Positions 25,795 through 39,533 of a stretch of DNA of 64,000 bases are shown here, in pieces. The notes under the pieces were generated by a model. That model ran no database searches and was not told where the DNA came from. It worked only from the letters and a program-made list of their open reading frames with translations. The stretch is from positions 2,240 to 66,239 of the forward strand of contig CAYUTF010000005.1 of assembly GCA_964447495.1 (NCBI GenBank). The letters run 5' to 3'. The stretch is from an uncultured archaeon (GTDB taxonomy: Archaea; Asgardarchaeota; Lokiarchaeia; Sigyniarchaeales; SOKP01). The position numbers and the translations under genes are program-made. Numbering within the stretch: position 1 is the first letter of the stretch; the number at the start of each line of letters is the position of its first letter.

Positions 25795-27705
25795 TTATTC
25801 TATTTCTCCAAGAAAAAGCTCTATAATAACAGACCATTTTTGGTTAGTATACTCGTCTTTAACATATTCAAGTAGTTCTTTACCTTTATTAAAATTAGTT
25901 AATGCCAAATCTTGATTTCCCACTGTATGGTAACATATTCCCAGTTTGATGTATGTTTGATAGATATACCATTCATTTTGCCCTAAAACAAGAACTTTTA
26001 AGAATTTTTTAATAGCTCCTGAATAATCTTCAAAATACATCAAAATTTCTCCATAACTATCGAAATTAAATGCATTTTCTGGCTCAATTTCGATTAAATT
26101 TTCAATGATTTTAATGGCATCCTCTTTTTTATCTATACATTTAAGCCAATGTGCCTTATAGTTCTTAAGTTGATTATTTTCAGGAAATCTCCTAACTAAA
26201 TCTTCAATTATCTCTAACCCCGCTTCTAGATTCTTCATTTTCTTTAATATGGATGCCTTTTTCATCTGTAGATCGATTTCTTTATCGGGGAATATGTCCA
26301 AAATCTCTTCTAATAAACTCAATACCAAATTATATTGATTAAAATAAATTAGAGTACTTAGTTTCATATTATATAAATCATAATTCAAAGGCTCTGATTC
26401 AAGAGCTCTATCGATCTCATCGATTTTTTCCTCATATTGATCTCGGAGTTCGTGGGGAGCTTCTTGTTCAAAAACTTCTGCAATATTCTGCCATATAATC
26501 TGTTCTATCTTATCATATGAATCTTTTATTTCTTTTTCACTTTCTATCTTATATGTAAGATATTGTATATAGCTTGGAAGTAATTCTCGTAGCGCTTCTT
26601 CAAAATCATTATGAATTATTGTTCCGCAAGATTCATCTATTATTGCTTGTACGACCTCATCAATAATGTTTTTAGCTATATGATCCTTTTTAAATGATTG
26701 TAATTCATTTATGTAGGTAAAATTAGCAATGTGCTCTTGGGTTATAATCCTCAACATTTTTTCTAACTTTTCACCTGTCTGAAGATAATAAACCTTTCCA
26801 GAAGGGCTTTTTAACTCAAAAAATCGAACAGGATAAATCTTTCCCTCACAGATTTCCGTTAGATAATAATCCAAAGTAGTTAGCTTAATTTTATAAAGTT
26901 TTGAAAATTCTTCTCGGGATATATGTTCAAGATATCGATTAGGATTATTCATTGCGAAATAGAGTAATATCTTATGAAAACTTTCTTCATTTTTCAACAA
27001 GGGTTTTACTTTATCGTAACTAAATTCCAACAACATTTTAAGAAACTGTATTTGAATTTGTTTATCGTCGATACGGTATTTATTGAAAAAAGCTAGTATA
27101 TTATCCGTCATCTCCCGCATTCGCTTAGTTTCTTCATCTAAGATTGTCTGTCGGTCTAAATCGTAGTTCTCCAGCATTTTAGAATATTCATTTTTTCCTG
27201 AAGGGGTAATTATATATTTAGTGTCTTGTTTTATTATAAATCCTTTTTTAATTAAATTATTCAGACTTTTTGATAAAGATGATTGATTAATAGAGAGTGG
27301 AATTTGAAAGAAATCGCTTCTTTTGCAATATTGATTGTTATACACCATCCAAAGTATCCAATGATCATAATTACGTCCACTTTTTAATATCACTCGTGGA
27401 GGATAATTTAGCGTTCGAACCTTCTTTTTTGCACTAGAAAGGTCGTTATATTTCTTCTTGCCCTCTGGAGTGATCTTGTATAACCCTCTTGAAATTTTAT
27501 TGACGTAATCTAAAGTTATTAACCTTTTTAAATGTCTTGATAATGTTCCTCCAGGGATTTTAATTGGATTTTCATTAAAATCAGCCCATGAGCAACTCTC
27601 ATTGTTGTTCAACATCCATAAAATAAGATGATCATAATCCGGACTTTTTTCACTCGAAGGATCATAAATATTTGTTGGAGGATAATTTATATTTTCTGTT
27701 GACAT
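25795..27705 (-). CDS. Putative regulator: two tandem winged-helix domains plus C-terminal TPR repeats
   Basis: Internal duplication DYDHLILWMLNNNESCSWADF...LSRHLKRLITLDYV...ITPEGKKKY versus NYDHWILWMVYNNQYCKRSDF...LSKSLNNLIKKGFI...ITPSGKNEY. The C-terminal third has TPR-like helices. Confidence 0.55.
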   Translation of the reverse strand: MSTENINYPPTNIYDPSSEKSPDYDHLILWMLNNNESCSWADFNENPIKIPGGTLSRHLKRLITLDYVNKISRGLYKITPEGKKKYNDLSSAKKKVRTLNYPPRVILKSGRNYDHWILWMVYNNQYCKRSDFFQIPLSINQSSLSKSLNNLIKKGFIIKQDTKYIITPSGKNEYSKMLENYDLDRQTILDEETKRMREMTDNILAFFNKYRIDDKQIQIQFLKMLLEFSYDKVKPLLKNEESFHKILLYFAMNNPNRYLEHISREEFSKLYKIKLTTLDYYLTEICEGKIYPVRFFELKSPSGKVYYLQTGEKLEKMLRIITQEHIANFTYINELQSFKKDHIAKNIIDEVVQAIIDESCGTIIHNDFEEALRELLPSYIQYLTYKIESEKEIKDSYDKIEQIIWQNIAEVFEQEAPHELRDQYEEKIDEIDRALESEPLNYDLYNMKLSTLIYFNQYNLVLSLLEEILDIFPDKEIDLQMKKASILKKMKNLEAGLEIIEDLVRRFPENNQLKNYKAHWLKCIDKKEDAIKIIENLIEIEPENAFNFDSYGEILMYFEDYSGAIKKFLKVLVLGQNEWYIYQTYIKLGICYHTVGNQDLALTNFNKGKELLEYVKDEYTNQKWSVIIELFLGEIE

Positions 27706-28069: not shown

Positions 28070-31000
28070 TTGAAAATGTATAAATATACAAAAAATAAAA
28101 AATTGAAATCGAAAAGAATTCTATTAATTATATCAGTACTATTCATTCTCCCCATAGTTATCAATTTTCTTGAAATGGATTTAGGATTTTACAATTATGT
28201 AGATGATAATATGGAGAATCTTGATAATGATTATCTTAGAAATTCTAATGTTTATAGTAGAGACTTTTCTGGAGATGGATGGGACATATTTATTTCTGGA
28301 GATTACGCATATATTGCTGATGGAAGCTTATACGGAGGATTGGTGGTGATTGATATCTCTGATCCTACTAACCCAGGTTCTCCGATATATGAGGCCACGG
28401 ATGGAAATGCTTTTGGAATTTATGTAAGTGGGGACTATGCTTATATGGGTGTTGGAAGTGTTGGATTGGCTGTGATCGATATCTCTAACCCTACTAACCC
28501 AGGATCTCCGATATATAAACCTATGGATGATTTCGCTAATGGACTTTATGTGAGTGGGGATTATGCATATGTCGCAGATGGAAGTGCTGGATTGGCAGTG
28601 ATCGATATATCAAATCCCACTAATCCAGGACTGCCTGTACATGAACCTACGAGTGATTATGCCTATGACGTTTATATACGTGGGGATTATGCTTATGTCG
28701 CAGATGGAAGTGCTGGATTGGCAGTGATCGACATATCAAATCCTACTAATCCGGGAACAGCAGTACTTGAAAATACTAGTGGATATTCGATGGCGGTTTA
28801 CGTGGAAGGAGATTATGCTTATGTGGCGGATTCAGGGAGTGGATTAGCAATCATTGATATTTCAGATCCTACTAATCCAGGAACACCAGTTTATGCTAGT
28901 ACGGATGGATCTGCCTATAGTGTTTATGTAGATGGGGATTATGCTTATGTGGCAGATAATCATAAAGGATTAGCAGTCATTGATATTTCAGATCCAATAA
29001 ATCCAAGTAAAATTGCTCAAGGATCTCTAGATAAAAATGTATATTCAATATGCATAGATGGAAATTATGCTTTCTTGGCTGGTAGTTATAAGTTTTACAC
29101 GATCGAGATTTCAGAACTTATTACGCCTCTAGAACTATGGTGGAATCAAGATACATCAGGCAATTCGCAAGGAGTATTTGTAAGTGGAGATTATGCCTAT
29201 GTTGCCGACGGAGCTAATGGATTAGCAATCTTTGATATTTCAGATCCTACTACTCTAGGATCATCTGCGTATAGCAATACTGCAGGAGATGCGGAAGATG
29301 TAGTGGTGAGTGGAGACTATGCATATGTTGCGGATGGTGGTGGTGGATTAGCGGTGATCGATGTTTCTGATCCTACTACTCCCGGAACCTCTATTCGTAG
29401 GGATACAACAGGCGATTCAAGAGGTATATTTGTGAGTGGAGATTACGCCTATATTGCTGATGGAGGGAGTGGATTAGCAATTATCGATATTTCTAATCCA
29501 ACCAGTCCAGGCGCTCCCGTTTACAAGGATGATGGTTATTTAACCAAATCTGTGTATATAGAAGGTGATTATGCTTATCTTTCTGCTGGAAGTGGAATAT
29601 TAACCATTGATATTTCTGATCCTACAACCCCGGGAGCATCAGTTTATTTATCTCTCGGAGGAGATGCTAGAGATATATATGTAAGGGGAGATTATGCCTA
29701 TCTTGTAATTTACAGTGATATAGTTACAGTTGATATTTCGGATCCCACTAATCCCACGTTGTTAGATAAAGAGCAGATATATCATACTGTTCCTGAAGGT
29801 ATATTTGTAAGCGGAGAATATGCGTATACCGCAGAAGATTATGGAAGTATGGGAGGGTATATAAAAATCTGGGATATTTCTGATCCTTCCCATATTTCAA
29901 TGGAAGATTCACTATACATTGGAGATACATATGGAGGAGATGGAGCGTTTGAATCATTCGTGACTGGAAACTATATTTATGTTGCAGACTCTGGTTCAGG
30001 ATTACTTGTGTGTGAGGTTCGTGAAAGGGTTGACACAAAAGACCCCGTAATTACACAATCCCCTAGTGATAAAATCATCGAAGCAGGTTATACAGGCGAA
30101 ACATTGTCTTGGAGAGCAACAGATACCAATCCAAATACATATACTATTGAACTTGAAGGAGTTGGTACTGTTGCCGGTCCAACAGCTTGGTTAAGTGGAT
30201 CCTTGGTAACTTATAATATCCCGGATGGATTATCGGTAGGAGAATATGATTACACTATTACTTTTACTGATGATCATGGATTTTATGCTGCAGATACAGT
30301 AAAAGTAACTGTTCAAGATACGGAAAAACCTGTGTTTACAGAATTTCCATCAGATCTTAAAATTTTAGAAGGCTATACTGGAATTAGTTTTTCTTGGAAT
30401 GCAACCGATGCCAATCCTGATACTTATATCATTGAACTGGGAGGAACAGGTATCGTTGCCGGTCCAACTTCTTGGTCAAGTGGGGTTGCCATTACATATA
30501 ATGTTCCCGATGGATTATCATTAGGGTATTATTTCTATAGAATCAACATTACCGATGAATATGATCATTTTTCCACAGCTACAGTGAAATTAACGGTTTA
30601 CGAACCAGATGATCCCATTATTACGGATAGTCCAATCGATCTTGTAGTTGGACCTGTTTATACAGGATTGAATTTTTCATGGACGGCTACGGAAGCCAAT
30701 CCTGACACTTATACTATCGAACTCCAAGGAGCTGGAATTATTACTCTTCCAACATCTTGGTCAAGTGGAGTTGCCGTTACGTATGATATTCCTGACGGAA
30801 TGAAAATAGGGGAACATTTCTTTACAATCAACTTTACGGATGAATTTGATAACTATGCCACAGACACTGTAAAGCTTACTATTCAAGACAATGCCCCTCA
30901 AATCACAAATGCTCCAGAGGATATGGTTATAATGACTGGTTATACTGATGTAGAAATTTCCTGGACAGCAACCGATGAAGAAGATCCAAACACATATACT

Positions 31001-31570
31001 ATTGAACTTGCGGGTAGTGGAATTGTTGTTGGTCCAACATCGTGGTCAAGTGGAGTAGCGGTTACATACGATATTCCTGATGGACTATCTTTAGGAGATC
31101 ATTTCTATACGATCAACTTTACGGATGAAACAAGTAATTTTGTCACTGATCAGGTAAAAATTACAGTACAAGAAGATAGCATTGATCCTGTAATTACTTT
31201 TGCTCCAGAAGATTATGGCTGTTTTACTGGATATACAGATGTGTGTTTCTTTTGGATTGCAACGGATGCTCATCCAGCTACATTTACTGTAGAACATCAA
31301 GATCATGGCATCGTAGCAGGACCAACTCCTTGGACGAGTGGAAATAATGTGAGTTATACCATTCCAGAAGGGCTATCAGTGGGAGAACACTTTTTTACCA
31401 TTAATTTTACTGATGTTGCTGGAAATTTTGCCACGGATACAGTAAAAATCACAATTATTGAGGAAACACCTGTAGAACCTCCTCCAGCAATTCCTTTCGG
31501 AAGTTCATTTTTGGTTTTCATGACAATTTCCATTATTGGAGTAGTAGTGTTCCAGAAAAGGAAAAAATAA
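28070..31570 (+). CDS. Large surface protein: N-terminal TM/signal, about 14 LVIVD beta-propeller repeats, six Ig-like (HYR-like) domains, C-terminal TM anchor
   Basis: Reiterated [26 protein letters not shown] units (LVIVD repeat). These are followed by six modules of about 94 aa (DPVIT..P.D....GYTG..(L/F)SW.ATD.NP.TYTIEL.G.G.VAGPT.W.SG...TY.IPDGLS.G.H.(Y/F)TI.FTD). The C-terminus is [26 protein letters not shown]. Confidence 0.8.
   Translation: [1166 protein letters not shown]
28247..30025 (+). repeat. In-frame tandem coding repeats (LVIVD units, about 126-nt period)
   Basis: For example, 28556-28630 and 28682-28756 differ at only 4 of 75 nt. Confidence 0.8.
30040..31470 (+). repeat. In-frame tandem coding repeats (six Ig-like modules of about 280 nt)
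   Basis: The periodicity is visible in the translated protein, and each module ends in VK(V/L/I)T(V/I). Confidence 0.7.
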
Positions 31571-31615: not shown

Positions 31616-31807
31616 CAAAACATAATTTATAAATATTCAAAAAATTAATTTTGAAGAAAAGATTCCTACATTTTGTTTGTGAAATGATTCAAATAAAGAA
31701 GAAATTTATCCATGAGATTTAATGAGGGGATATAGATCATTCTGAATGAACTTGATGAAGTAAAAAAATTAATAGAAGAGGAGAAATTCCAAAAGGCTAA
31801 CGATTTA

Positions 31808-33676
31808 TTGGATAAATTGGAGGAAAAAACTGATCTCAAAAAATCAGAATTAGGCTCCTTATTTTTCTATAAAGCTGTAGCATTAGTAAGGAGGGGAAAT
31901 TATCCAGAGACATTGAAATATGCTAAAAAAGCATATCATGTTGTTCCTAAAGAAGCGTTAAGTCCTCGAATGGTTGAAATTTTAGCGATGATGGGTCTTG
32001 CTTCTTGTTGGATAGGAAATTTTGAAATAGGATATCAATATCTAGATGAAGCTGAGCAGAAATTAAATAACCTAATTGATATTTCAGAAAAAAGACGGAT
32101 TCTTCTGGAAACAATGATATATGCTGATAGGAATTGTGGTTATATGCAACAAGGAAAAAGCGATCTATTCTATGAATCCGCAATGAAGCTTTCAAGTCTA
32201 AGTGAACAGATTAACGACAAATATGTATTGGCTCAAATCTATTATCAATTAGGATCGCTTTATACCTTTATTAGAATTGATATAAAGTTAGCTATAAAAT
32301 ATTCTTTCAAATGTCAACCTCTCGCAGAAGAGTTGGGAAATAATACTTTTATTGCTCTCAATTTAGTAACTATTGGTGCGATTTATGTTATAACAGGTGA
32401 TTTAGAAAAAGCGTTATTTTATCACAAGGAAGCATTGAAAAAAGCTGATATTATCATGATCAAAATGTCTATTTTTAATAATATTTCAATGATATATAGT
32501 CAAAAAGGAGATTTAGATAAAGCTTTAGAATCGCTTGAAAAAGCTTTTGAATTAGCCAATAAAGTTAAAGCCCCATATATTTTGAGCACCACATTGGCAA
32601 GTATGATCGAAGTATTAGTTTTAACAGGCAAAAACGAAAGAGCAAGAGAGCATTTAATTACATTGAAAGAGATTGCTAAAAATGAGAAAAGTCAATTTAC
32701 GGAATTACTTGCCCATTACTGTGAAGGATTTATCTTAAAAACAAAGAGTCGAATTCAAGATCGTGCTAAAGCACAAAATATCTTCGAAGAAATAGTACAG
32801 CAAAACGTGATTTCTGGAGAATTGACAATGAAAGCTCTTATAAATCTGTGTGATTTATTAGTAGAGGAATTTCGCTTTACTTCTGAATTGGAAATATTAG
32901 ATGATCTGAGTATATTACTTGAAAAATTAATAACTATTGCAAAAAGTCTAAATTCTTTTTGGATTTTAACTGAAACTTATCTATTACAAGCAAAATTTGC
33001 TTTATTAAAAGGAGATTTGAAGAGTGCTAGGAAAAAATTAACTGAGGCTCAAGATCTCGCCGAGAAAAATAATCTTAAATTATTAGTTGGTAAAATATCA
33101 TATGAGCATGATAAAATATTACGAAATTTGAAGATGTGGGAATCACTTATAGAAAAAGATGTTCCTTTAAATGAGCGAATCGAGTTAGCTGAATTAACCG
33201 TACATATTGAAAATATGCTTCTTAATCGGAAGGTTTCTCTTGAAATTTCTGAAGAAGACCCCGTAATAATCTTAATCATTACAGAAGGAGGCACACCCAT
33301 ATTTTCACATTCATTTATTAAAGAAAAAACATTTGAAACCCAAATTATTGGTGGATTTCTAACAACAATAGATTACTTTATTAAAGAGACTTTTTCTCAA
33401 GGATTAGATCGAGCAGTTTTCGGAAATTATACACTCTTAATGAAATACATTCAACCTTTTTACATAACCTATATCTTTAGTGGTAATTCTTATTATGCCC
33501 TTCAAAGAATTAATTATTTTACTGAAAATTTGAAAAATAAAGATATAATATGGGAAAAATTAATAGTTAATTGTGAAAAGGGTAAAACTATTCGCCTTAA
33601 TGATATTCCTTTACTGGAAACATTGATAAGTAATACTTTTATATACAAAAATGTAGAATTAAATCAACTAATATAA
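31808..33676 (+). CDS. TPR-repeat protein with a C-terminal roadblock/longin-like alpha-beta domain
   Basis: TPR-like helices run through about aa 1-450. The C-terminal segment PVIILIITEGGTPIFSHSF...QIIGGFLTTIDYFIKETF...AVFGNYTLLMKYIQPFYITYIFSG..YYALQRINYFTENL has a strand-helix-strand-strand-helix pattern. The frame is open from 31736 with no canonical start before TTG 31808. Confidence 0.5.
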   Translation: MDKLEEKTDLKKSELGSLFFYKAVALVRRGNYPETLKYAKKAYHVVPKEALSPRMVEILAMMGLASCWIGNFEIGYQYLDEAEQKLNNLIDISEKRRILLETMIYADRNCGYMQQGKSDLFYESAMKLSSLSEQINDKYVLAQIYYQLGSLYTFIRIDIKLAIKYSFKCQPLAEELGNNTFIALNLVTIGAIYVITGDLEKALFYHKEALKKADIIMIKMSIFNNISMIYSQKGDLDKALESLEKAFELANKVKAPYILSTTLASMIEVLVLTGKNERAREHLITLKEIAKNEKSQFTELLAHYCEGFILKTKSRIQDRAKAQNIFEEIVQQNVISGELTMKALINLCDLLVEEFRFTSELEILDDLSILLEKLITIAKSLNSFWILTETYLLQAKFALLKGDLKSARKKLTEAQDLAEKNNLKLLVGKISYEHDKILRNLKMWESLIEKDVPLNERIELAELTVHIENMLLNRKVSLEISEEDPVIILIITEGGTPIFSHSFIKEKTFETQIIGGFLTTIDYFIKETFSQGLDRAVFGNYTLLMKYIQPFYITYIFSGNSYYALQRINYFTENLKNKDIIWEKLIVNCEKGKTIRLNDIPLLETLISNTFIYKNVELNQLI

Positions 33677-33779
33677 ATTCTATTACTTTTATTCTTTTTA
33701 TAGCATTAAATGTTTAAATTAATAGAGATATAATTCTAAATTATTGAGAGTTAATCTCTTTTGACTAATACTAAGAATT

Positions 33780-34316
33780 ATGAGTAAAGGAGAATATCAA
33801 TTCAAAATTTCAGTAGTAGGAGATGGAGCGGTAGGCAAAACTTCTCTTATTAAAATGTTTACAAAAGGAATATTTGAAAAAGATTATATCAAAACTATTG
33901 GCGCGCAATTTTCACGATTTGAAAAAGTAATAGAGAATGATAGCGTAAATCTAGTCTTCTGGGATATCGCTGGTCAAGAAGATTTTGATTTTCTTCAGCC
34001 ACTATTTTATAAAGAGAGTAAAGCTTCTATTGTAGTCTATAGTCTTGAAGATAATGATTTAGGTAGAGAGAGTTTTAATCATATAAAGAACTGGGTTCAA
34101 AATCTAAGAAAATATTGCGGAGAAATCCCCCTGATTTTATTTGCTAATAAGGTAGATTTAATAGAGGAAAATGAATTAAATTTACTGGATATAAAGAACA
34201 TAGCTGAAAAACATAATTTTTTTAGCTTTTCCTTGACTTCTGCGAAAACAGGCCAGGGAGTTAATGAAGCATTTAATCTAATCATCCATGAATTATATAA
34301 TAAGTATAGAGAGTAA
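33780..34316 (+). CDS. Rab/Ras-like small GTPase
   Basis: G1 GDGAVGKTS, switch I YIKTIGAQF, G3 WDIAGQE, G4 NKVDL, G5 TSAKTG. There is no C-terminal prenylation Cys. Confidence 0.9.
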   Translation: MSKGEYQFKISVVGDGAVGKTSLIKMFTKGIFEKDYIKTIGAQFSRFEKVIENDSVNLVFWDIAGQEDFDFLQPLFYKESKASIVVYSLEDNDLGRESFNHIKNWVQNLRKYCGEIPLILFANKVDLIEENELNLLDIKNIAEKHNFFSFSLTSAKTGQGVNEAFNLIIHELYNKYRE

Positions 34317-34547: not shown

Positions 34548-36143
34548 ATGACGAATCCTAACTTCCCTCCCGAAGAGATATTCGAAAACAGAGCTGAATT
34601 TGGTTTATACAATTCAATAAGGATGCTAACCAAGATTATTGAGTCATCAGATGATAGTAATAAAAGAAAAAGTGCGATAAAGTATTTAGGATTAGTAAGT
34701 AAAGAAGCACCAGCATATAAAGAAGAGTGTTTTGATAGTATAGAAAACATTTTAATCTCGGAAGAGAATATTGAAATTAAATGCGAAGCGGCTAAGGCTT
34801 TAGGAAAATTAAAACTGAAAAAGGCTTTAAAACCTTTACTATGGATTTTTGATAAATCCGTAGATAACAACGATTTAAGGCTTTCAATATTAAAAGCGAT
34901 CTATAAAATTACATTTGAAGATGCTGAAATTGAACTCTTCATAAAAGAATTAGATTCTTCTCATATTGAAATTAAGGAATATGTGAAAAATCAGTTACTT
35001 ATCCTCAATCCTGAAGTATTGGTAAAAAAATTAATTAATTCTTTACCTAATAAAAATCTTTCAAATAAAAATAAAGCGGAGATAATAAAGTTAATTGCTT
35101 TTGAAATTTCGAGTATAAATTCATCCTTTGAGGGTTCAAGTTTCATAGAAGTAAAGTATCCCGAAATTCTCTCAGAATTAATAAACCAAAAAGAAGTATT
35201 GCTGACAGAAATAACTCAAATATTGAAGACAGATGATAAAAGTCTACTTGAATCATCAATTTCGATTCTTAGTATACTTAAGGATAATATTAAAGAAGAT
35301 ATTATTAAGTTACTCCTTACAGATAATTTCATCATAAAAAAAAATGCAATTACAATTTGTGGTAAACTTCAATTAATTGAGGCTGCAGACTTAATAGTTC
35401 AAAACTTGGATAATCTCTATAATGAGGTAAGCATAGCTTCAATCGAGGCATTAGGAGAGATTGGTGATCTTACAACTGTACCTGATTTACTTGATATTCT
35501 AAATGTTGAAGATATCAGTTTTGAATATTCTGATATTGATATGAAATTCCAAATTATGGATGCTGTAAAAAAAATTTATTTAAAGCATGATCAAATATCC
35601 TATAAGGACTTATATCAATCTTTAGAAAAGGAAAATGACACTATCAGGGCGAGCATCGCATTTATTTTAGGAGAGATAGGAAGAGAAGAATTTATACAAC
35701 CATTAATACGACTATTGAAGATTAAAAACGTAGATGTTAGAAAAAATATAATAATAGCTCTAGGAAAAATAGGACATATCGATGCTTTAGATAATTTAAT
35801 TGATATTATTAATGATGATAGTGCATATTGGCTTATTAAAAAAGTAACTACTGATGCTATATATAATATCTTTCAACAAAATTCGTATAAGATTGATAAA
35901 AATACTAAACAATTGAAATCGGAATTAAATAAAAAAATAGCTATTATTATTGAGCATTTAAGAGAATCAGAGAAGGAAAATTACAAAGTTAAATTAGGTT
36001 TAATAAAATTCTTAGAAACTTTCGGAGATACAAAAGCTTTAGATGCTTTATTGAGAAGAGTTAATGATTTTCATAGAGTAGTTAGAATTTATGCTTCTAA
36101 TGCGATTAAAAAAATCGAGGAAAGATTGGAATTAGGCAATTAA
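34548..36143 (+). CDS. HEAT-repeat (PBS-lyase HEAT-like) protein
   Basis: Recurring units such as EAAKALGKLKLKKALKPLL, SIEALGEIGDLTTVPDLLDIL, IAFILGEIGREEFIQPLIRLL, and IIALGKIGHIDALDNLI. Confidence 0.7.
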   Translation: MTNPNFPPEEIFENRAEFGLYNSIRMLTKIIESSDDSNKRKSAIKYLGLVSKEAPAYKEECFDSIENILISEENIEIKCEAAKALGKLKLKKALKPLLWIFDKSVDNNDLRLSILKAIYKITFEDAEIELFIKELDSSHIEIKEYVKNQLLILNPEVLVKKLINSLPNKNLSNKNKAEIIKLIAFEISSINSSFEGSSFIEVKYPEILSELINQKEVLLTEITQILKTDDKSLLESSISILSILKDNIKEDIIKLLLTDNFIIKKNAITICGKLQLIEAADLIVQNLDNLYNEVSIASIEALGEIGDLTTVPDLLDILNVEDISFEYSDIDMKFQIMDAVKKIYLKHDQISYKDLYQSLEKENDTIRASIAFILGEIGREEFIQPLIRLLKIKNVDVRKNIIIALGKIGHIDALDNLIDIINDDSAYWLIKKVTTDAIYNIFQQNSYKIDKNTKQLKSELNKKIAIIIEHLRESEKENYKVKLGLIKFLETFGDTKALDALLRRVNDFHRVVRIYASNAIKKIEERLELGN

Positions 36144-36310: not shown

Positions 36311-37807
36311 ATGACTGAAAACCAACCAAAAGAAAAGCAAGAATCCTCTCAATATGAATATTCATTTAATTATATTCAGAAGAAGTTAGAAGGGAAGAAA
36401 GATAGTCTCGGTATGCTCATGAAGGAGATCATCCGAACGGGGATATGTACTGAATGTGGCACATGTGCTGCGGTCTGTCCTGTCTTAGAATGGGATCATG
36501 AGCTAGGAGAACCTAAACTGGTAGGAAAGTGTACGGGATGTGGAATATGTTATAATCAATGTCCACGAACTATAACAGATCCGATACAACTCATGGGAGA
36601 CTTCAAAACAGGTTATGTATCGAACACAAATATTCCCGAAGTCATTGGAGGTCAAGATGGGGGCACTGTGACTTCATTGTTATGCTATTTATTCGATGAA
36701 CATTTAATAGATGCAGCAATCGTTACAATGAAAGATCCTGAAAATCCATGGAACCCAGTTGCACAGATCATAACAACAAAAGAAGATGCTATTAAATCAT
36801 CAGGTTCGATTTATTCACATTCCCAAACTGTTGAGGCTCTTATGGATGCGATTAGACAGGATTACAGGTCGATTGCTTTTGTAGGAACTCCCTGTAATAT
36901 TGATGCCGTTGATAAAATGATGAGTTCTCCTGCAGGAATGCTAAAATACTTCATGAGAGCACATGTATTAAAGTTAGGGCTTTTTTGCATGGATTCATTT
37001 GCACCTGAAGCATTATATTCATTTTTTGATAAAGAAGGAGTTGATCTTAAGCAAGTAAAAAAAATGGATATTAATAAAGGTAAATTTCATTTATACTACG
37101 ATCCGGATAAAGAACCTGTTAAATCATATACCATTAAACAATTAGATAAATTTAAGTCATCGAGTTGTAATTTTTGCACCGATTTAACCGCTGAAAATTC
37201 GGATATCTCTGTTGGATCAGTAGGAAGCGGGCCAAATAAGAATACAGTATTTGCTAGAACCGGGATTGGGGCTGAAATTATTGAGGATGCCGCGAAAAAA
37301 GGATACCTAAAAATTGAACCTTTTAATGCTATAAACCTTAATGCTGTATTATTTTTAGCCAAGCTTAAAAAAGTTTCTCAATATAATATACAGAAACGTA
37401 AAGTATTCATCGTTAAAGATACTATTGAAGAAGAACCACGTATTAAAACAAAACCAGAGGCTGAGAAGTCGAAAACAACGCCAGAATTAGGAGCAAGGAA
37501 ATTTTTACGAGTTACAAAGGATATTAACGAGGAAGAGAATGTTTTAAATATATCTATAACGAATTCTGTTGGCTATGTTTTAGAGAAATTAAAAATAAGA
37601 ATAGTAACCGTAGAAGATTTATTTGAAAGTCGACCATGGATCACGACAATAAAAGAATTATTTCCATACGAAACCATTGAAATTGGATACCCTTTAGAAG
37701 AAAAAGAAGGGAAGATTATTTATGGGAATGTTTTAGTTGAAGCCTCCACAGATGATTTTGGAAAAATATTCTCAAAAACTTTTAAATTAGTACCTAAAGA
37801 AGTATAA
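36311..37807 (+). CDS. FrhB/FdhB-family protein, paralog 3, with a unique C-terminal extension of about 140 aa
   Basis: CTECGTCAAVCP / CTGCGICYNQCP, GGQDGGTVTSLLCYLF, VGTPCNIDAV, CNFCTDLTAENSDISVGSVG. A K/E-rich linker follows, then an unrecognised beta-rich tail. Confidence 0.7.
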   Translation: MTENQPKEKQESSQYEYSFNYIQKKLEGKKDSLGMLMKEIIRTGICTECGTCAAVCPVLEWDHELGEPKLVGKCTGCGICYNQCPRTITDPIQLMGDFKTGYVSNTNIPEVIGGQDGGTVTSLLCYLFDEHLIDAAIVTMKDPENPWNPVAQIITTKEDAIKSSGSIYSHSQTVEALMDAIRQDYRSIAFVGTPCNIDAVDKMMSSPAGMLKYFMRAHVLKLGLFCMDSFAPEALYSFFDKEGVDLKQVKKMDINKGKFHLYYDPDKEPVKSYTIKQLDKFKSSSCNFCTDLTAENSDISVGSVGSGPNKNTVFARTGIGAEIIEDAAKKGYLKIEPFNAINLNAVLFLAKLKKVSQYNIQKRKVFIVKDTIEEEPRIKTKPEAEKSKTTPELGARKFLRVTKDINEEENVLNISITNSVGYVLEKLKIRIVTVEDLFESRPWITTIKELFPYETIEIGYPLEEKEGKIIYGNVLVEASTDDFGKIFSKTFKLVPKEV

Positions 37808-37918: not shown

Positions 37919-38839
37919 GTGCTCCCGTACTTGAAAATTGCATTGATAGGGCTTTCAGGTTGTGGTAAAACAAGCCTCTACTCTGTTGCTTTTGCGGAAA
38001 AAAGTCCAGAAGACACCAAAAAGTTTAGTCCAACAATTTTATATGAAACTCGAAGGCATCCCTTTTTAGGATTACAAGTTGGCATATTTGACTTTGGAGG
38101 GCAAGAACAATATAGAAAAGAGTATATGGAAAAGCCAGAAGTGTTTAGAGGTACTGATATCTTAATTCCTATTGTGGATTTACATGATCCTAAATCTTTT
38201 AAGCAAGCAAAGGAGTATTTTGAAGGGTTATTAAATATTTATCGAAAAAATAATGAAAAGCCGAAAATCTTTCTATTCTTGCATAAATATGACGTTGAGA
38301 ATTATCAAAAAGAACTTCTCGATACAAACGTTAAAATGGCTAAGGAAGCTTTATTAGATTTGTTCAAGGATTATGAGTTTGATTACAAGTTAACGAGTAT
38401 TTATTTACAAGATGAATTAGCTAAAATTTTCAGGGATATTTTAATATCTTCCTATTCAGAGCTAAAAACTCATGTTGAGAAAGCAGAGAAGCAGTTAGAA
38501 GAAATTAAAGCAAAAATTATTATTTCTGATGTATCGGGAAATGTCATAGTACATAATGTTCAAGGCGTGAGTAGTGGATTAACATTAAGGGGAGATTTAA
38601 GAGACTTTATCAATGCTTGCAATACAGTCCGAGAAAATCTTTTTATGTCAGATTCTGCTGAGTTTAAAGGGAGAAATGATGATGGAAAAGAGATTGAACT
38701 CTACATCTTCAAGTATATCATTTCTGTTCTTGTAATGAAATCTGGGGAGATTGAACGTGAATCTCAAGATAAACTTAATATGTTATTGAATGACATGAAA
38801 TTATTTGCTGATTTAATAATTTCAGCCCACACTGAGTAG
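37919..38839 (+). CDS. Rag/Gtr1-like GTPase with a C-terminal roadblock domain
   Basis: G1 GLSGCGKTS, G3 DFGGQEQY, and an atypical G4 HKYD (compare HKMD of Rag GTPases). TSIYLQDELAKIFRDIL resembles the Rag TSIWDETLYKAW segment. The C-terminal roughly 120 aa show an alpha-beta roadblock pattern. Confidence 0.7.
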   Translation: MLPYLKIALIGLSGCGKTSLYSVAFAEKSPEDTKKFSPTILYETRRHPFLGLQVGIFDFGGQEQYRKEYMEKPEVFRGTDILIPIVDLHDPKSFKQAKEYFEGLLNIYRKNNEKPKIFLFLHKYDVENYQKELLDTNVKMAKEALLDLFKDYEFDYKLTSIYLQDELAKIFRDILISSYSELKTHVEKAEKQLEEIKAKIIISDVSGNVIVHNVQGVSSGLTLRGDLRDFINACNTVRENLFMSDSAEFKGRNDDGKEIELYIFKYIISVLVMKSGEIERESQDKLNMLLNDMKLFADLIISAHTE

Positions 38840-38891: not shown

Positions 38892-39533
38892 TTAGGTATA
38901 GAATATTCTATAAAGTTCGTCATAAAGTCTTGCAAGCTTAGAAATTACATCGGGATTATTTTGTTGTAAATAATATGAGAGATAACTTGATAAACCTTGT
39001 GGATTTTTAATCCATTCTAAAAAAGCCTCAACTTCTGCTTTTATTAAAGGATCGATATTAATCTCGCCTACTTTTGATAACCCATTATAACTTTTAGCTA
39101 AATTCTCCGCTTCTTCAGTATCGACATCCGTTTCAATAAATGTAGATTTTGATCCTTTTGATATCATAGCAGCAGCCCTTGCTACAGCAGGATAAGCTAA
39201 ATGAAACCATCCTTTCGCTTTAGGACTGATTTGAGCAATCATGTATTTATCTCCATCGGGTGTAGCTGCCCCAATAAGATGCCCCTTATTATGCCGATTG
39301 GTTGCAATGAATCGTTCTGGTGCCATTTGAACAATCGAATAGCGTATACTTGCTACTGTAACTGATTGAGCAGAATTACTTGTCCAAGATGCTAATAGAT
39401 TTTTTATATCGCTTTTAATATTCCAATTCTTTGTTGAATATAGCATTTTTCCATTGTTTGCAATAATTGCTATAGATTTTGCATCTTTATAATGATGCTG
39501 TAATTTGCTGACCACATTTTTAAAATCTGCCAT
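38892..39533 (-). CDS. Profilin-like protein with a C-terminal extension of about 80 aa
   Basis: The profilin-type pattern SIAIIANNGKMLYSTKNWNIKSDIKNL ... VASIRYSIVQMAPERFIATNRHNKGHLIGAATPDGDKYMIAQ parallels eukaryotic AAIIGHDGSVWAQS ... [24 protein letters not shown]. The first roughly 130 aa match profilin length. Confidence 0.55.
   Translation of the reverse strand: MADFKNVVSKLQHHYKDAKSIAIIANNGKMLYSTKNWNIKSDIKNLLASWTSNSAQSVTVASIRYSIVQMAPERFIATNRHNKGHLIGAATPDGDKYMIAQISPKAKGWFHLAYPAVARAAAMISKGSKSTFIETDVDTEEAENLAKSYNGLSKVGEINIDPLIKAEVEAFLEWIKNPQGLSSYLSYYLQQNNPDVISKLARLYDELYRIFYT

Follow-up and report, generated by a model that had tools for sequence, protein, structure and literature searches.

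A small GTPase paired with a protein of the roadblock/longin superfamily is a known theme, represented by MglA-MglB, Rag-Ragulator and Mon1-Ccz1. The longin and roadblock domains serve GTPases as dimeric platforms that act as exchange factors for guanine nucleotides (GEFs) or GTPase-activating proteins (GAPs) (PMC12290439, PMC13408092). In the Asgard archaea, an operon for a LAMTOR1-like protein, a Rab-like GTPase and a DENN protein has been described, as have fusions of longin or roadblock domains to GTPases (Liu et al. 2020, bioRxiv 10.1101/2020.10.19.343400; Tran et al. 2024, PMC10933270). The GTPase genes of MK-D1 are generally not located in operons with roadblock or longin genes, and GTPases cannot be matched to their longin/roadblock regulators from the genome layout (Tran et al., PMC10933270). 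Dey, Thattai and Baum (PMC4917890) have asked whether operon analysis reveals the targets of the Asgard small GTPases. Here, we describe a gene for a tetratricopeptide repeat (TPR) protein that ends in a longin-fold domain and is located directly upstream of a gene for a Rab-like GTPase. The genes are contained in a 64,000-nucleotide (nt) stretch of contig CAYUTF010000005.1 from an uncultured Lokiarchaeial archaeon, here called the window. With somewhat more confidence than doubt, we read the TPR-longin protein as a partner or regulator of the neighboring GTPase in a sensor-longin-GTPase signaling cassette.

The two genes and the parts of the TPR-longin protein, in amino acids (aa), are as follows:

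31736-33676 (+), TPR-longin gene, an open reading frame (ORF) of 646 aa from 31736 or 622 aa from the TTG at 31808; stop codon at 33674-33676
31736-33154 (+), TPR superhelix, aa 1-473, about 23 helices, from the full-length AlphaFold2 (AF2) model and Pfam
33077-33124 (+), I-S-x-E-H-D helix, aa 448-463, with S455, E457, H458 and D459; the most conserved stretch of the family
33167-33256 (+), linker helix and loop, aa 478-507; the AF2 helix covers 478-496, and the predicted local distance difference test score (pLDDT) is below 50 at 487-501
33257-33643 (+), longin-fold domain, aa 508-636, from AF2 and Foldseek
33677-33779, spacer of 103 nt between the TPR-longin and GTPase genes
33780-34316 (+), Rab-like small GTPase gene, 178 aa, a bare G domain

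Gene callers choose the TTG at 31808 and thereby a protein of 622 aa, while the residue numbers used here follow the 646-aa reading. The ORFs and the Pfam matches agree with the gene order in the first-pass annotation of the window: a TPR protein, a Rab-like GTPase 103 nt downstream and then a HEAT-repeat protein, all on the plus strand.

Linkage to the GTPase gene is conserved in Asgard archaea

When one genome from each prokaryotic species was scanned, 168 relatives of the longin domain were identified, and 76 loci were kept, onto which the proteins of the window were mapped. All 76 are from Asgard metagenome-assembled genomes (MAGs) labelled Prometh-, Hod-, Hermod- or Thorarchaeota, and the nearest relatives of the window locus are MAGs labelled Promethearchaeota. 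The MAGs with the conserved pair further include some labelled Heimdallarchaeota. The loci contain 119 distinct copies of the domain, of which 116 have a TPR region directly upstream. The TPR region is fused to the domain in frame and without a stop codon in 115 of these 116 copies. The exception is found in locus L001 (6726-8681), where an internal TAA and an internal TAG in the TPR part have led to the calling of two genes of 402 and 226 aa. This looks like a pseudogene or a sequencing or assembly error, and no stand-alone longin protein. Recoding was also considered where an in-frame stop appeared to separate the TPR part from the longin part, and was rejected, as four of the five cases were alignments that extended past the true stop codon and the fifth is L001.

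A close homolog of the window's GTPase follows on the same strand after 70 of the 119 copies, within 400 nt in 64 of these and with a median distance of 134 nt. The remaining copies are followed by another TPR-longin gene (41 copies) or by unrelated genes (six copies), or are located at a contig end (two copies). When the copies are viewed as arrays of one to four tandem TPR-longin genes with a visible 3' end, 70 of 76 arrays end in the same GTPase subfamily. Absence of a conserved linkage in relatives had been named beforehand as an outcome that would speak against the pairing, and the linkage has instead been retained. If about 2% of all genes are assumed to code for small GTPases, a fraction based on the 74 small GTPases in MK-D1 (PMC10933270), the binomial tail for 70 of 76 arrays is ~1e-110, and chance adjacency is excluded. 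Sampling in the reverse direction, from GTPase relatives on long contigs, placed a TPR-longin gene directly upstream in three of four informative loci, and a gene for a helix-turn-helix (HTH)-TPR protein, described below, was adjacent to the GTPase gene in four of five loci.

Orthologs that are 84-85% identical to the TPR-longin protein in the window exist, and across the loci the longin module is 40-85% identical to that of the window, mostly 45-57%. Among 1.84 billion representatives clustered at 50% identity, 1318 clusters belong to the family with E<=1e-3 and 497 with E<=1e-30, and most of its members are 600-700 aa long with the domain at the C-terminus. It appears to be a large family that is so far confined to the Asgard archaea. 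The best cross-genome matches of the tandem copies ignore their position in the array, which means that there is no positional orthology. We therefore rejected a fixed hetero-complex of the tandem copies in favor of recurrent duplication of interchangeable units. A Rosetta-stone fusion to a GTPase was not found in the top 150 family representatives or in the top 120 GTPase relatives. Some cassettes also contain unannotated genes of 226-227 aa, such as L082 (1721-2404) and L084 (2000-2680), which are located between an HTH-TPR or TPR-longin gene and the next TPR-longin gene and have no Pfam match. These were considered as stand-alone longin modules and dismissed, since they have no similarity to the cassette proteins.

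The C-terminal domain has a longin fold

A search with the last 176 aa of the protein identified 44 relatives, none of which has a Pfam domain, and those that are named all belong to Asgard MAGs. The domain was modeled by itself with AF2 from an alignment of these 44 relatives, and in an independent run the full-length protein was modeled from 89 diverse family members. The full-length model has a pLDDT of 89.5 and a predicted template modeling score (pTM) of 0.90, with pLDDT values of 87-94 in most of the domain. Its elements are β1 (508-516), β2 (521-526), α1 (531-555), β3 (559-562), β4 (565-572), β5 (575-582), α2 (585-601), α3 (603-615) and α4 (625-636). The domain-only model is of moderate confidence (pLDDT 73.3, pTM 0.67) and shows the same order, with a linker helix followed by β1, β2, a long α1, β3, β4, β5, α2 and α3. 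In the numbering of that model, DSSP assigned strands to 38-46, 51-56, 89-92, 95-102 and 105-112, and helices to 61-81, 115-131 and 133-145. Both models hence have the longin order β1-β2-α1-β3-β4-β5-α2-α3 and no N-terminal helix packed on the sheet.

A comparison of the structure to the PDB with Foldseek gave 12 matches at E<=1e-3, which are clathrin-adaptor sigma subunits, COPI zeta and delta, and Mon1-Ccz1. The top match is AP2 sigma (E=6.7e-5; template modeling (TM) scores 0.51/0.62), and AP1 and AP3 sigma were also matched. The next ranks contain BLOC-3, the VAMP7 longin domain and sedlin, followed by the LAMTOR/MP1-p14 Ragulator roadblocks (E=2e-3 to 5e-3). The structural similarity to solved longin domains covers a range from E=6.7e-5 to 5e-3, with TM scores of 0.45-0.64. 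In this structural check, longin proteins are thus the best matches and roadblocks come after them.

The first-pass annotation had assigned the last ~130 aa to the roadblock/longin family from a pattern of a short strand, a long amphipathic helix, a strand hairpin and a helix. The superfamily was correctly recognized, but the order of the elements was not: two strands, a long helix, three strands and then helices identify the domain as a longin rather than a roadblock. The roadblock/LC7 order α1-β1-β2-α2-β3-β4-β5, with an N-terminal helix on the sheet, does not fit, as two C-terminal helices follow after β5. The helix ahead of β1 is a low-confidence linker (pLDDT <60), and there is no match to Pfam Robl_LC7. 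In roadblock domains, the N-terminal helix is present and the second C-terminal one is missing (Tran et al., PMC10933270).

The invariant residues in the 89 diverse sequences are S455, D459, G519 in the β1-β2 turn, R559 (with D558) at the α1-β3 junction, Y579 and G583. Judging from the topology, the β1-β2, α1-β3 and β4-β5 loops are placed at one end of the domain. This would also be the end at which the catalytic pocket is located in longin GAPs, and R559, which is present in 89/89 sequences, would be on that side. In these GAPs, two longin domains form the pocket, which is located at the β1-β2 loop and contains a GP motif ahead of β2 and, beside it, an arginine finger (Traffic 2025, PMC12290439). 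The β1-β2 loop has a conserved E-G-G sequence in the GTPase-linked copies, the E-G of which has been lost in variants with TIR or kinase domains (see below). If anything, the β1-β2 turn would be the element that tracks the linkage to the GTPase.

The N-terminal part is a sensor-type TPR superhelix

Pfam assigns TPRs to the first ~450 aa of the TPR-longin protein (TPR_12, E=9.4e-16), including a match to TPR_MalT of 57.2 bits, compared to a curated cut-off of 45. There is also a sequence match to LGN (E=4e-7). Foldseek searches with the TPR part of the full-length model matched LGN/Pins, MalT domain III (TM 0.70) and Rap/RRNPP receptors (TM 0.66-0.72), with the TM scores normalized to the target. 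The superhelices of LGN, MalT domain III and the Rap-type proteins, which the TPR part resembles, enclose peptides or small ligands, and the TPR superhelix is presumed to be an input or binding domain. No NTPase domain of the STAND or MalT type was identified in the protein by Pfam, and the sole NTPase of the pair is the separate Rab-like GTPase.

The TPR part is fast-evolving and shows only ~30% identity to that of the window across the loci. Neighboring tandem copies are 54% identical in the TPR part compared to 71.5% in the C-terminal module. The most conserved stretch of the family, the I-S-x-E-H-D helix, is part of a wider helix, K-I-S-x-E-H-D...W-E, which spans 33077-33142 just ahead of the linker. 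In the 89 diverse sequences, S455 is conserved in 89/89, H458 in 88/89 and D459 in 89/89. The motif has also been retained by the variants with TIR or kinase domains and by copies that have no GTPase as a neighbor.

The GTPase is Rab-like and has no lipid anchor

The gene downstream was predicted to encode a clean Rab/Ras-like GTPase, and both Pfam (Ras, E=1.3e-41; Roc, E=1.3e-29) and the solved structures agree. Among the solved structures, it matches best to Rab23 (E=2.3e-31), Rab21, Rab5 and the crystallized Rab from Thorarchaeota (Thor-Rab, E=5e-27), and its relatives are labelled "Rab family GTPase" at NCBI. The motifs G1 (GDGAVGKTS), switch I (KTIGAQFS), G3 (WDIAGQED, with the catalytic Gln), G4 (NKVD) and G5 (SAK) are all present. 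MglA has another residue in place of the catalytic switch II Gln and uses an intrinsic Arg. The 72 GTPases of the cassettes are 178-188 aa long and do not belong to this type: G1-G5 and DIAGQ, including its Gln, are at least 90% conserved, and the best matches are Rabs rather than MglA. The protein is a complete and probably catalytically competent switch. The cassette GTPases are 57-88% identical to that of the window, mostly 60-69%.

A C-terminal Cys would be expected for prenylation and membrane attachment, but none of the 72 cassette GTPases contains one among the last six residues; the GTPase in the window ends with ELYNKYRE. There is no hypervariable tail, that is, no extension beyond the G domain. 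Pfam identified only TPR and Ras-family domains in the two proteins, and no search was aimed at transmembrane or amphipathic segments. The first-pass annotation had seen the genes as a minimal module of the kind thought to precede the eukaryotic trafficking machinery. We favor signaling over vesicle traffic because there is no Cys tail (0/72), the TPRs are of the sensing type found in MalT, Rap and LGN, and paralogs with TIR and kinase domains exist.

The same observations bear on the possibility that the TPR-longin protein is half a unit of a proto-adaptor or coat, in which an alpha-solenoid and a sigma- or zeta-like longin would operate with a small GTPase, as in the trunk and small subunit of the AP complexes or the COPI F-subcomplex recruited by Arf. 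The architecture of solenoid and longin with an adjoining small GTPase is consistent with this, as are the top Foldseek matches to AP2, AP1 and AP3 sigma and COPI zeta and delta (E=7e-5 to 1e-3, TM up to 0.64), and tandem paralogs could in principle pair as pseudo-dimers that resemble the AP core. However, the margin over Mon1-Ccz1, BLOC-3, VAMP7 and sedlin is small, and there is no sequence similarity to sigma2, for which a manually entered sequence was used. Furthermore, the solenoid consists of TPRs of the MalT/Rap/LGN type and not of adaptin HEAT/ARM repeats, and the GTPase is Rab-like rather than Arf-like and has no membrane anchor. There is no appendage, mu-homology or membrane-binding domain, and both the HTH partner and the variants with TIR or kinase domains indicate signaling. 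We consider a role in a coat to be very improbable.

The region upstream of the GTPase gene contains one further conserved element:

33713-33720 (+), TATA-box-like TTTAAATT, located 67 nt upstream of the ATG of the GTPase gene; it is preceded by T-runs that follow the stop codon of the TPR-longin gene

In cassettes from different species, a TATA-like element begins 66-68 nt ahead of the ATG of the GTPase gene in 52 of 73 cases, and the upstream consensus is ctAAAATTTTATATTAaac.A.A.CTAATtTTaca. The conserved sequence can be written AAAATTTTATATTA...CTAATTTTAC, a combination of a transcription factor B recognition element (BRE)/TATA-like element and a downstream CTAATTTTAC box. It is probable that TTTAAATT belongs to a promoter of the GTPase gene itself, and the BRE/TATA-like element and the CTAATTTTAC box could represent a promoter with an operator for the HTH-TPR protein of the cassette. 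A scan for sigma-70 promoters and terminators found 27 sites compared to 29.6 expected, which is uninformative because the models are bacterial and the host is archaeal.

An HTH-TPR protein is the recurrent third component

Two more genes in the window have to be considered as members of the cassette:

25795-27705 (-), HTH-TPR gene, 636 aa, two winged-helix domains and C-terminal TPRs
34548-36143 (+), HEAT-repeat protein gene, 531 aa, Pfam HEAT_2 (E=2.4e-35)

The first-pass annotation had suggested the HEAT-repeat protein as the effector of the module. The gene does follow after the GTPase gene in the window, but among the 76 loci L002 and L004, the two closest to the window, are the only ones with a HEAT homolog in this position. 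The HEAT-repeat protein was therefore rejected as a conserved effector and is a local neighbor outside the module.

The recurrent third gene is instead the HTH-TPR gene. In most loci, a homolog with 45-57% identity either lies upstream of the array in divergent orientation or follows the GTPase gene in convergent orientation, and the cassettes commonly follow each other head to tail. In the window, the HTH-TPR gene is separated from the TPR-longin gene by a gene for a protein of 1166 aa. The HTH-TPR protein matches HTH_34 (E=7.1e-07), HTH_45, MarR and TPR_14/TPR_19 in Pfam, and there are matches below the cut-offs to HTH domains of the Sso10a/Sta1/Lrs14 type in NCBIfam. Comparisons to RRNPP and other specific families gave only generic TPR matches and a weak winged-HTH match. 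Locus L083 also carries an HTH-TPR variant of 840 aa.

Variants with TIR or kinase domains and two alternative readings

Among the top 150 family representatives, five have a C-terminal TIR domain and one has a Ser/Thr kinase domain. The TPR-longin-TIR proteins are ~795 aa long, and their TIR domain is similar to those of ThsB and SAVED-TIR proteins. No GTPase gene is located directly downstream of the variants in L077 (TIR) and L078 (kinase), although the L078 contig is only 2.5 kb. These paralogs would be versions with a built-in output. In L082 (6730-10555), two TIR variants flank a HepT/MNT toxin-antitoxin pair beside a canonical cassette, while L077 (4523-6913) has a lone TIR variant amid arginine-biosynthesis genes. 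The kinase variant in L078 (1-2064) is followed by a NUDIX gene.

The variants raise the possibility that the longin domain only dimerizes or assembles the proteins, and that the GTP-bound GTPase binds as an effector to the TPRs of the TPR-longin protein, of the HTH-TPR protein or of both. The variants with TIR or kinase domains have kept the longin module and its invariant residues although neither of the two contexts examined has a GTPase gene directly downstream, which fits a generic oligomerization that brings output domains together. Pairs of HTH-TPR and GTPase genes also occur without a TPR-longin gene. Binding of this kind has precedents, in that Rac-GTP binds to the TPRs of p67phox. 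In prokaryotes, the TPR domain of SgmX is a documented effector of the small GTPase MglA in its GTP form (PMC13408092). On the other hand, it is the longin module and not the TPR part that co-varies in conservation with the GTPase-linked architecture. The E-G-G loop, which GTPase-linked copies have retained and the TIR and kinase variants have lost, occupies the position of the GP motif in the longin GAPs (PMC12290439), and longin and roadblock domains beside GTPases contact the GTPase directly in known systems. A role for the longin domain in assembly alone is thus unlikely in our judgement.

It has also to be considered whether the family is a diversifying conflict or immune-type system that senses an invader or non-self, similar to the TPR sensors of STAND/Avs proteins or the RRNPP regulators. 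The outputs would then be the GTPase switch, the TIR domain or the kinase, and the HTH-TPR protein would be the regulator, which overlaps with the reading that we favor. The many paralogs per genome, their tandem arrays and the lack of positional orthology are consistent with immune sensing, as are the fast-evolving TPRs of the MalT/Rap type and the fusions to kinase and ThsB/SAVED-TIR-like domains, with TIR variants on both sides of the HepT/MNT pair in L082. However, no core protein of the cassette matches a PADLOC defence model, and neither a mobile element nor a defence island was seen in the context of the window from the ORFs and Pfam matches. Moreover, one of the TIR variants is found among biosynthetic genes (L077), and the GTPase shows a degree of conservation that would be unusual in a conflict system. 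The GTPase and longin families have been generally expanded in the Asgard archaea (PMC10933270; bioRxiv 10.1101/2020.10.19.343400), which also speaks against a specific immune function, and we regard such a function as quite unlikely.

Proposed function of the cassette

In the reading that we favor, the TPR-longin protein would be a two-part adaptor, presumably located in the cytosol, in which a variable TPR superhelix of the type that binds ligands or peptides is joined to a conserved C-terminal module with the longin-fold domain at its end. The TPR part would first take up an input, which could be a protein, a peptide or a small ligand. The longin domain, which like other longin and roadblock platforms is probably a homo- or heterodimer, would then contact the cognate GTPase and either set its nucleotide state, as a GEF or GAP, or read it, as a GTP-dependent adaptor. 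Finally, the switch would be relayed to the HTH-TPR protein and thereby to transcription. We would give roughly one third each to a GEF, a GAP and a GTP-dependent adaptor, with a slight lean towards a catalytic role. The pattern of a conserved switch, the GTPase, and a variable input, the TPRs, is in line with this reading.

Several observations weigh against it. The last ~200 aa have no match in Pfam even at E<=1, NCBIfam has no match to the C-terminal domain, and a profile of the domain gave nothing relevant against the PDB sequences. A comparison to AP2 sigma2 with hhalign gave a probability of 0.1, for a manually entered sigma2 sequence. The domain has been left unannotated because no sequence method detects its relationship to longins. 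The domain-only model is of moderate confidence, with a pLDDT of 73, and the Foldseek E-values are on the order of 1e-4 to 1e-3. The strict GP motif of FLCN, SMCR8 and NPRL2 is not present: the motif is here G-x-P, with G519 in 89/89 sequences and P521 in only 36/89. Furthermore, R559 persists in the variants with TIR or kinase domains as well as in the six copies that have no GTPase neighbor, which weakens its candidacy as a GTPase-specific arginine finger and suggests that it may be structural. The GTPase gene has a promoter-like element of its own, and T-runs follow the upstream stop codon, so it is safer to refer to the genes as conserved neighbors than as an operon. Finally, HTH-TPR/GTPase pairs without an intervening TPR-longin gene are found in L083 (2436-8074), L015, L019 and L022. 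Since such pairs occur alone, the GTPase can work without the TPR-longin protein, and its link to the HTH-TPR protein may be at least as basic as that to the TPR-longin protein.

The cassette provides a candidate partner match for one large and highly conserved subfamily of Asgard Rab-like GTPases, in the form of the TPR-longin protein, the HTH-TPR protein and the promoter-like element. The absence of a lipid anchor, the sensing-type TPRs, the partner with a DNA-binding domain and the TIR and kinase paralogs together suggest a soluble role in signaling. This bears on whether the Asgard Rab-like GTPases are trafficking or signaling proteins (PMC4917890), and if true, it changes the reading of the "eukaryotic signature" proteins in models of eukaryogenesis. 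A bolder scenario, which we are inclined to doubt as a whole, would be a widespread and so far overlooked three-part signaling system of the Asgard archaea, present in many copies per genome, in which interchangeable TPR-longin proteins are ligand-controlled GEFs or GAPs that gate a Rab-like GTPase acting on the HTH-TPR factor, with the TIR and kinase proteins as sisters. The pairing of longins and Rabs would in that case have begun as a soluble, possibly immune-like switch for sensing and transcription, and would later have been recruited to membranes.

Translation start and genes surrounding the cassette

Upstream of the TPR-longin gene, the following element was identified:

31724-31731 (+), Shine-Dalgarno-like GAGGGGAT, 4-10 nt before the near-cognate codons ATC 31736, ATT 31739 and CTG 31742

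The first canonical start codon is the TTG at 31808, but the frame is already open at 31736. Further upstream, the ATG at 31712 is in frame but runs into a TAG at 31733-31735. The 24 codons that precede the TTG are conserved as protein among the orthologs, and both GAGGGGAT and the coding sequence downstream of it have been kept in the orthologs in L002, L003, L004 and L006. The equivalent start position in orthologs is ATC-ATT, TTG (L004) or ATG (L011). Because the 24 codons are conserved and are preceded by the strong Shine-Dalgarno-like GAGGGGAT, translation probably starts upstream of the TTG at a near-cognate codon, which would give a protein of ~644-646 aa.

The window consists of low-GC DNA, with a GC content of 27-38%. 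The gene that separates the HTH-TPR and TPR-longin genes is:

28070-31570 (+), predicted surface protein gene, 1166 aa

The surface protein has hydrophobic segments at its N- and C-terminal ends, and about 15 repeats with the sequence GDYAYVADG..GL.VIDISDPTNP as well as six repeats of ~95 aa that look immunoglobulin-like. The gene spacing in L002, the closest relative, suggests the same insertion of a surface-protein gene as in the window.

Downstream of the HEAT-repeat protein gene, there is a gene (36311-37807, +) for an FrhB/FdhB-like protein (F420 hydrogenase/dehydrogenase beta), which contains an N-terminal 2x[4Fe-4S] domain and a C-terminal extension of ~150 aa without a Pfam match. It is followed by a second eukaryote-like GTPase gene (37919-38839, +), 3.6 kb downstream of the cassette, the product of which is a Gtr1/RagA-like protein of 306 aa (Pfam Gtr1_RagA, E=1.3e-23; PDB Gtr1, E=2.6e-17, and RagA, E=4e-16). 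The C-terminal extension of this protein is roadblock-like by eye, and hhalign found no link between it and the C-terminal domain of the TPR-longin protein. The next gene (38892-39533, -) encodes a protein of 213 aa, in which the N-terminal ~125 aa match Asgard profilins (5YED/5YEE, E=2.5e-10; 5ZZB, 5ZZA, 7PBH). This protein has a C-terminal extension of ~85 aa and no Pfam match.

Comparison with known systems

No earlier description of the cassette was found in the full-text literature, with subscription-only papers and the asCOG tables falling outside this coverage, and the view that a fusion of TPRs to a longin is not a textbook architecture holds. The TPR-longin architecture, the longin domain that escapes recognition by sequence, the tandem-array cassette with an HTH-TPR gene and a conserved promoter-like element preceding its GTPase gene, and the sister proteins with TIR or kinase domains all appear to be new.

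A close prokaryotic parallel, found in bacteria and archaea, is MglA-MglB, in which the gene for a small GTPase is likewise located beside a gene for a protein of the roadblock/longin superfamily, and the regulator is expected to be a dimeric platform. A TPR protein is also part of that system, as SgmX reads the GTP state (PMC13408092). However, the roadblock of MglB is small, stands alone and has the order α-β-β-α-β-β-β, whereas the domain in the cassette has the longin order and is fused to ~470 aa of TPRs. The GTPase also differs in being Rab-like with the DIAGQ Gln, and the HTH-TPR partner and the tandem arrays are features of the cassette only.

The longin heterodimers Mon1-Ccz1, BLOC-3 (HPS1-HPS4) and Inturned-Fuzzy bind and regulate Rabs, and chains of Mon1-Ccz1 and BLOC-3 are among the structural matches. 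The GEF of Rab23, the best solved relative of the cassette GTPase, is a tri-longin complex. The RabGEFs have three longins per chain compared to one here, there is no sequence similarity between them and the TPR-longin protein, and the latter has a TPR N-terminus and no evident membrane targeting. The longin fold is also shared with the longin GAPs. In FLCN and NPRL2, the arginine fingers are placed in the β4-β5 hairpin. The TPR-longin protein resembles the GAPs FLCN-FNIP, GATOR1 (NPRL2-NPRL3) and C9orf72-SMCR8 and the "GP-motif" longins of Asgard archaea (PMC12290439) in that the conserved E-G-G turn and the D-R pair, with its invariant Arg, would by topology be located at the end of the domain where the GAPs have their pocket. 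It differs from them in that there is no conserved G-P, no Arg in the β4-β5 hairpin and no DENN module.

Among the Asgard archaea, the LAMTOR1-like/Rab-like GTPase/DENN operon and the fusions of longin or roadblock domains to GTPases likewise combine a Rab- or Rag-like GTPase with a roadblock or longin protein. In the cassette, the partner is instead a TPR-longin protein, there is no DENN or LAMTOR1-like protein, and the third gene is HTH-TPR. The cassette would have been invisible to the survey by Tran et al. because its longin domain matches no sequence model. The sigma subunits of the AP complexes and COPI zeta, with their alpha-solenoid trunks, are the best structural matches, and the combination of solenoid and longin and, presumably, the functional coupling to a small GTPase are common to both. 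Here, however, the solenoid consists of TPRs rather than HEAT/ARM repeats and is covalently fused to the longin, the GTPase is Rab-like rather than Arf, and the context is one of signaling without coat or appendage parts.

For the N-terminal part, the closest parallels are MalT domain III and the STAND proteins, the RRNPP regulators (Rap, PlcR, AimR) and LGN/Pins, the TPR superhelices of which are similar in both sequence and structure. The TPR-longin protein differs from these sensors in that it has no STAND NTPase domain and no GoLoco motif, and no gene for a signaling peptide was identified adjacent to it. LGN, with its TPRs and GoLoco motifs, likewise joins a TPR scaffold to a module that faces a G-protein, and the RRNPP regulators join an HTH domain to TPRs, as does the HTH-TPR partner in the cassette.

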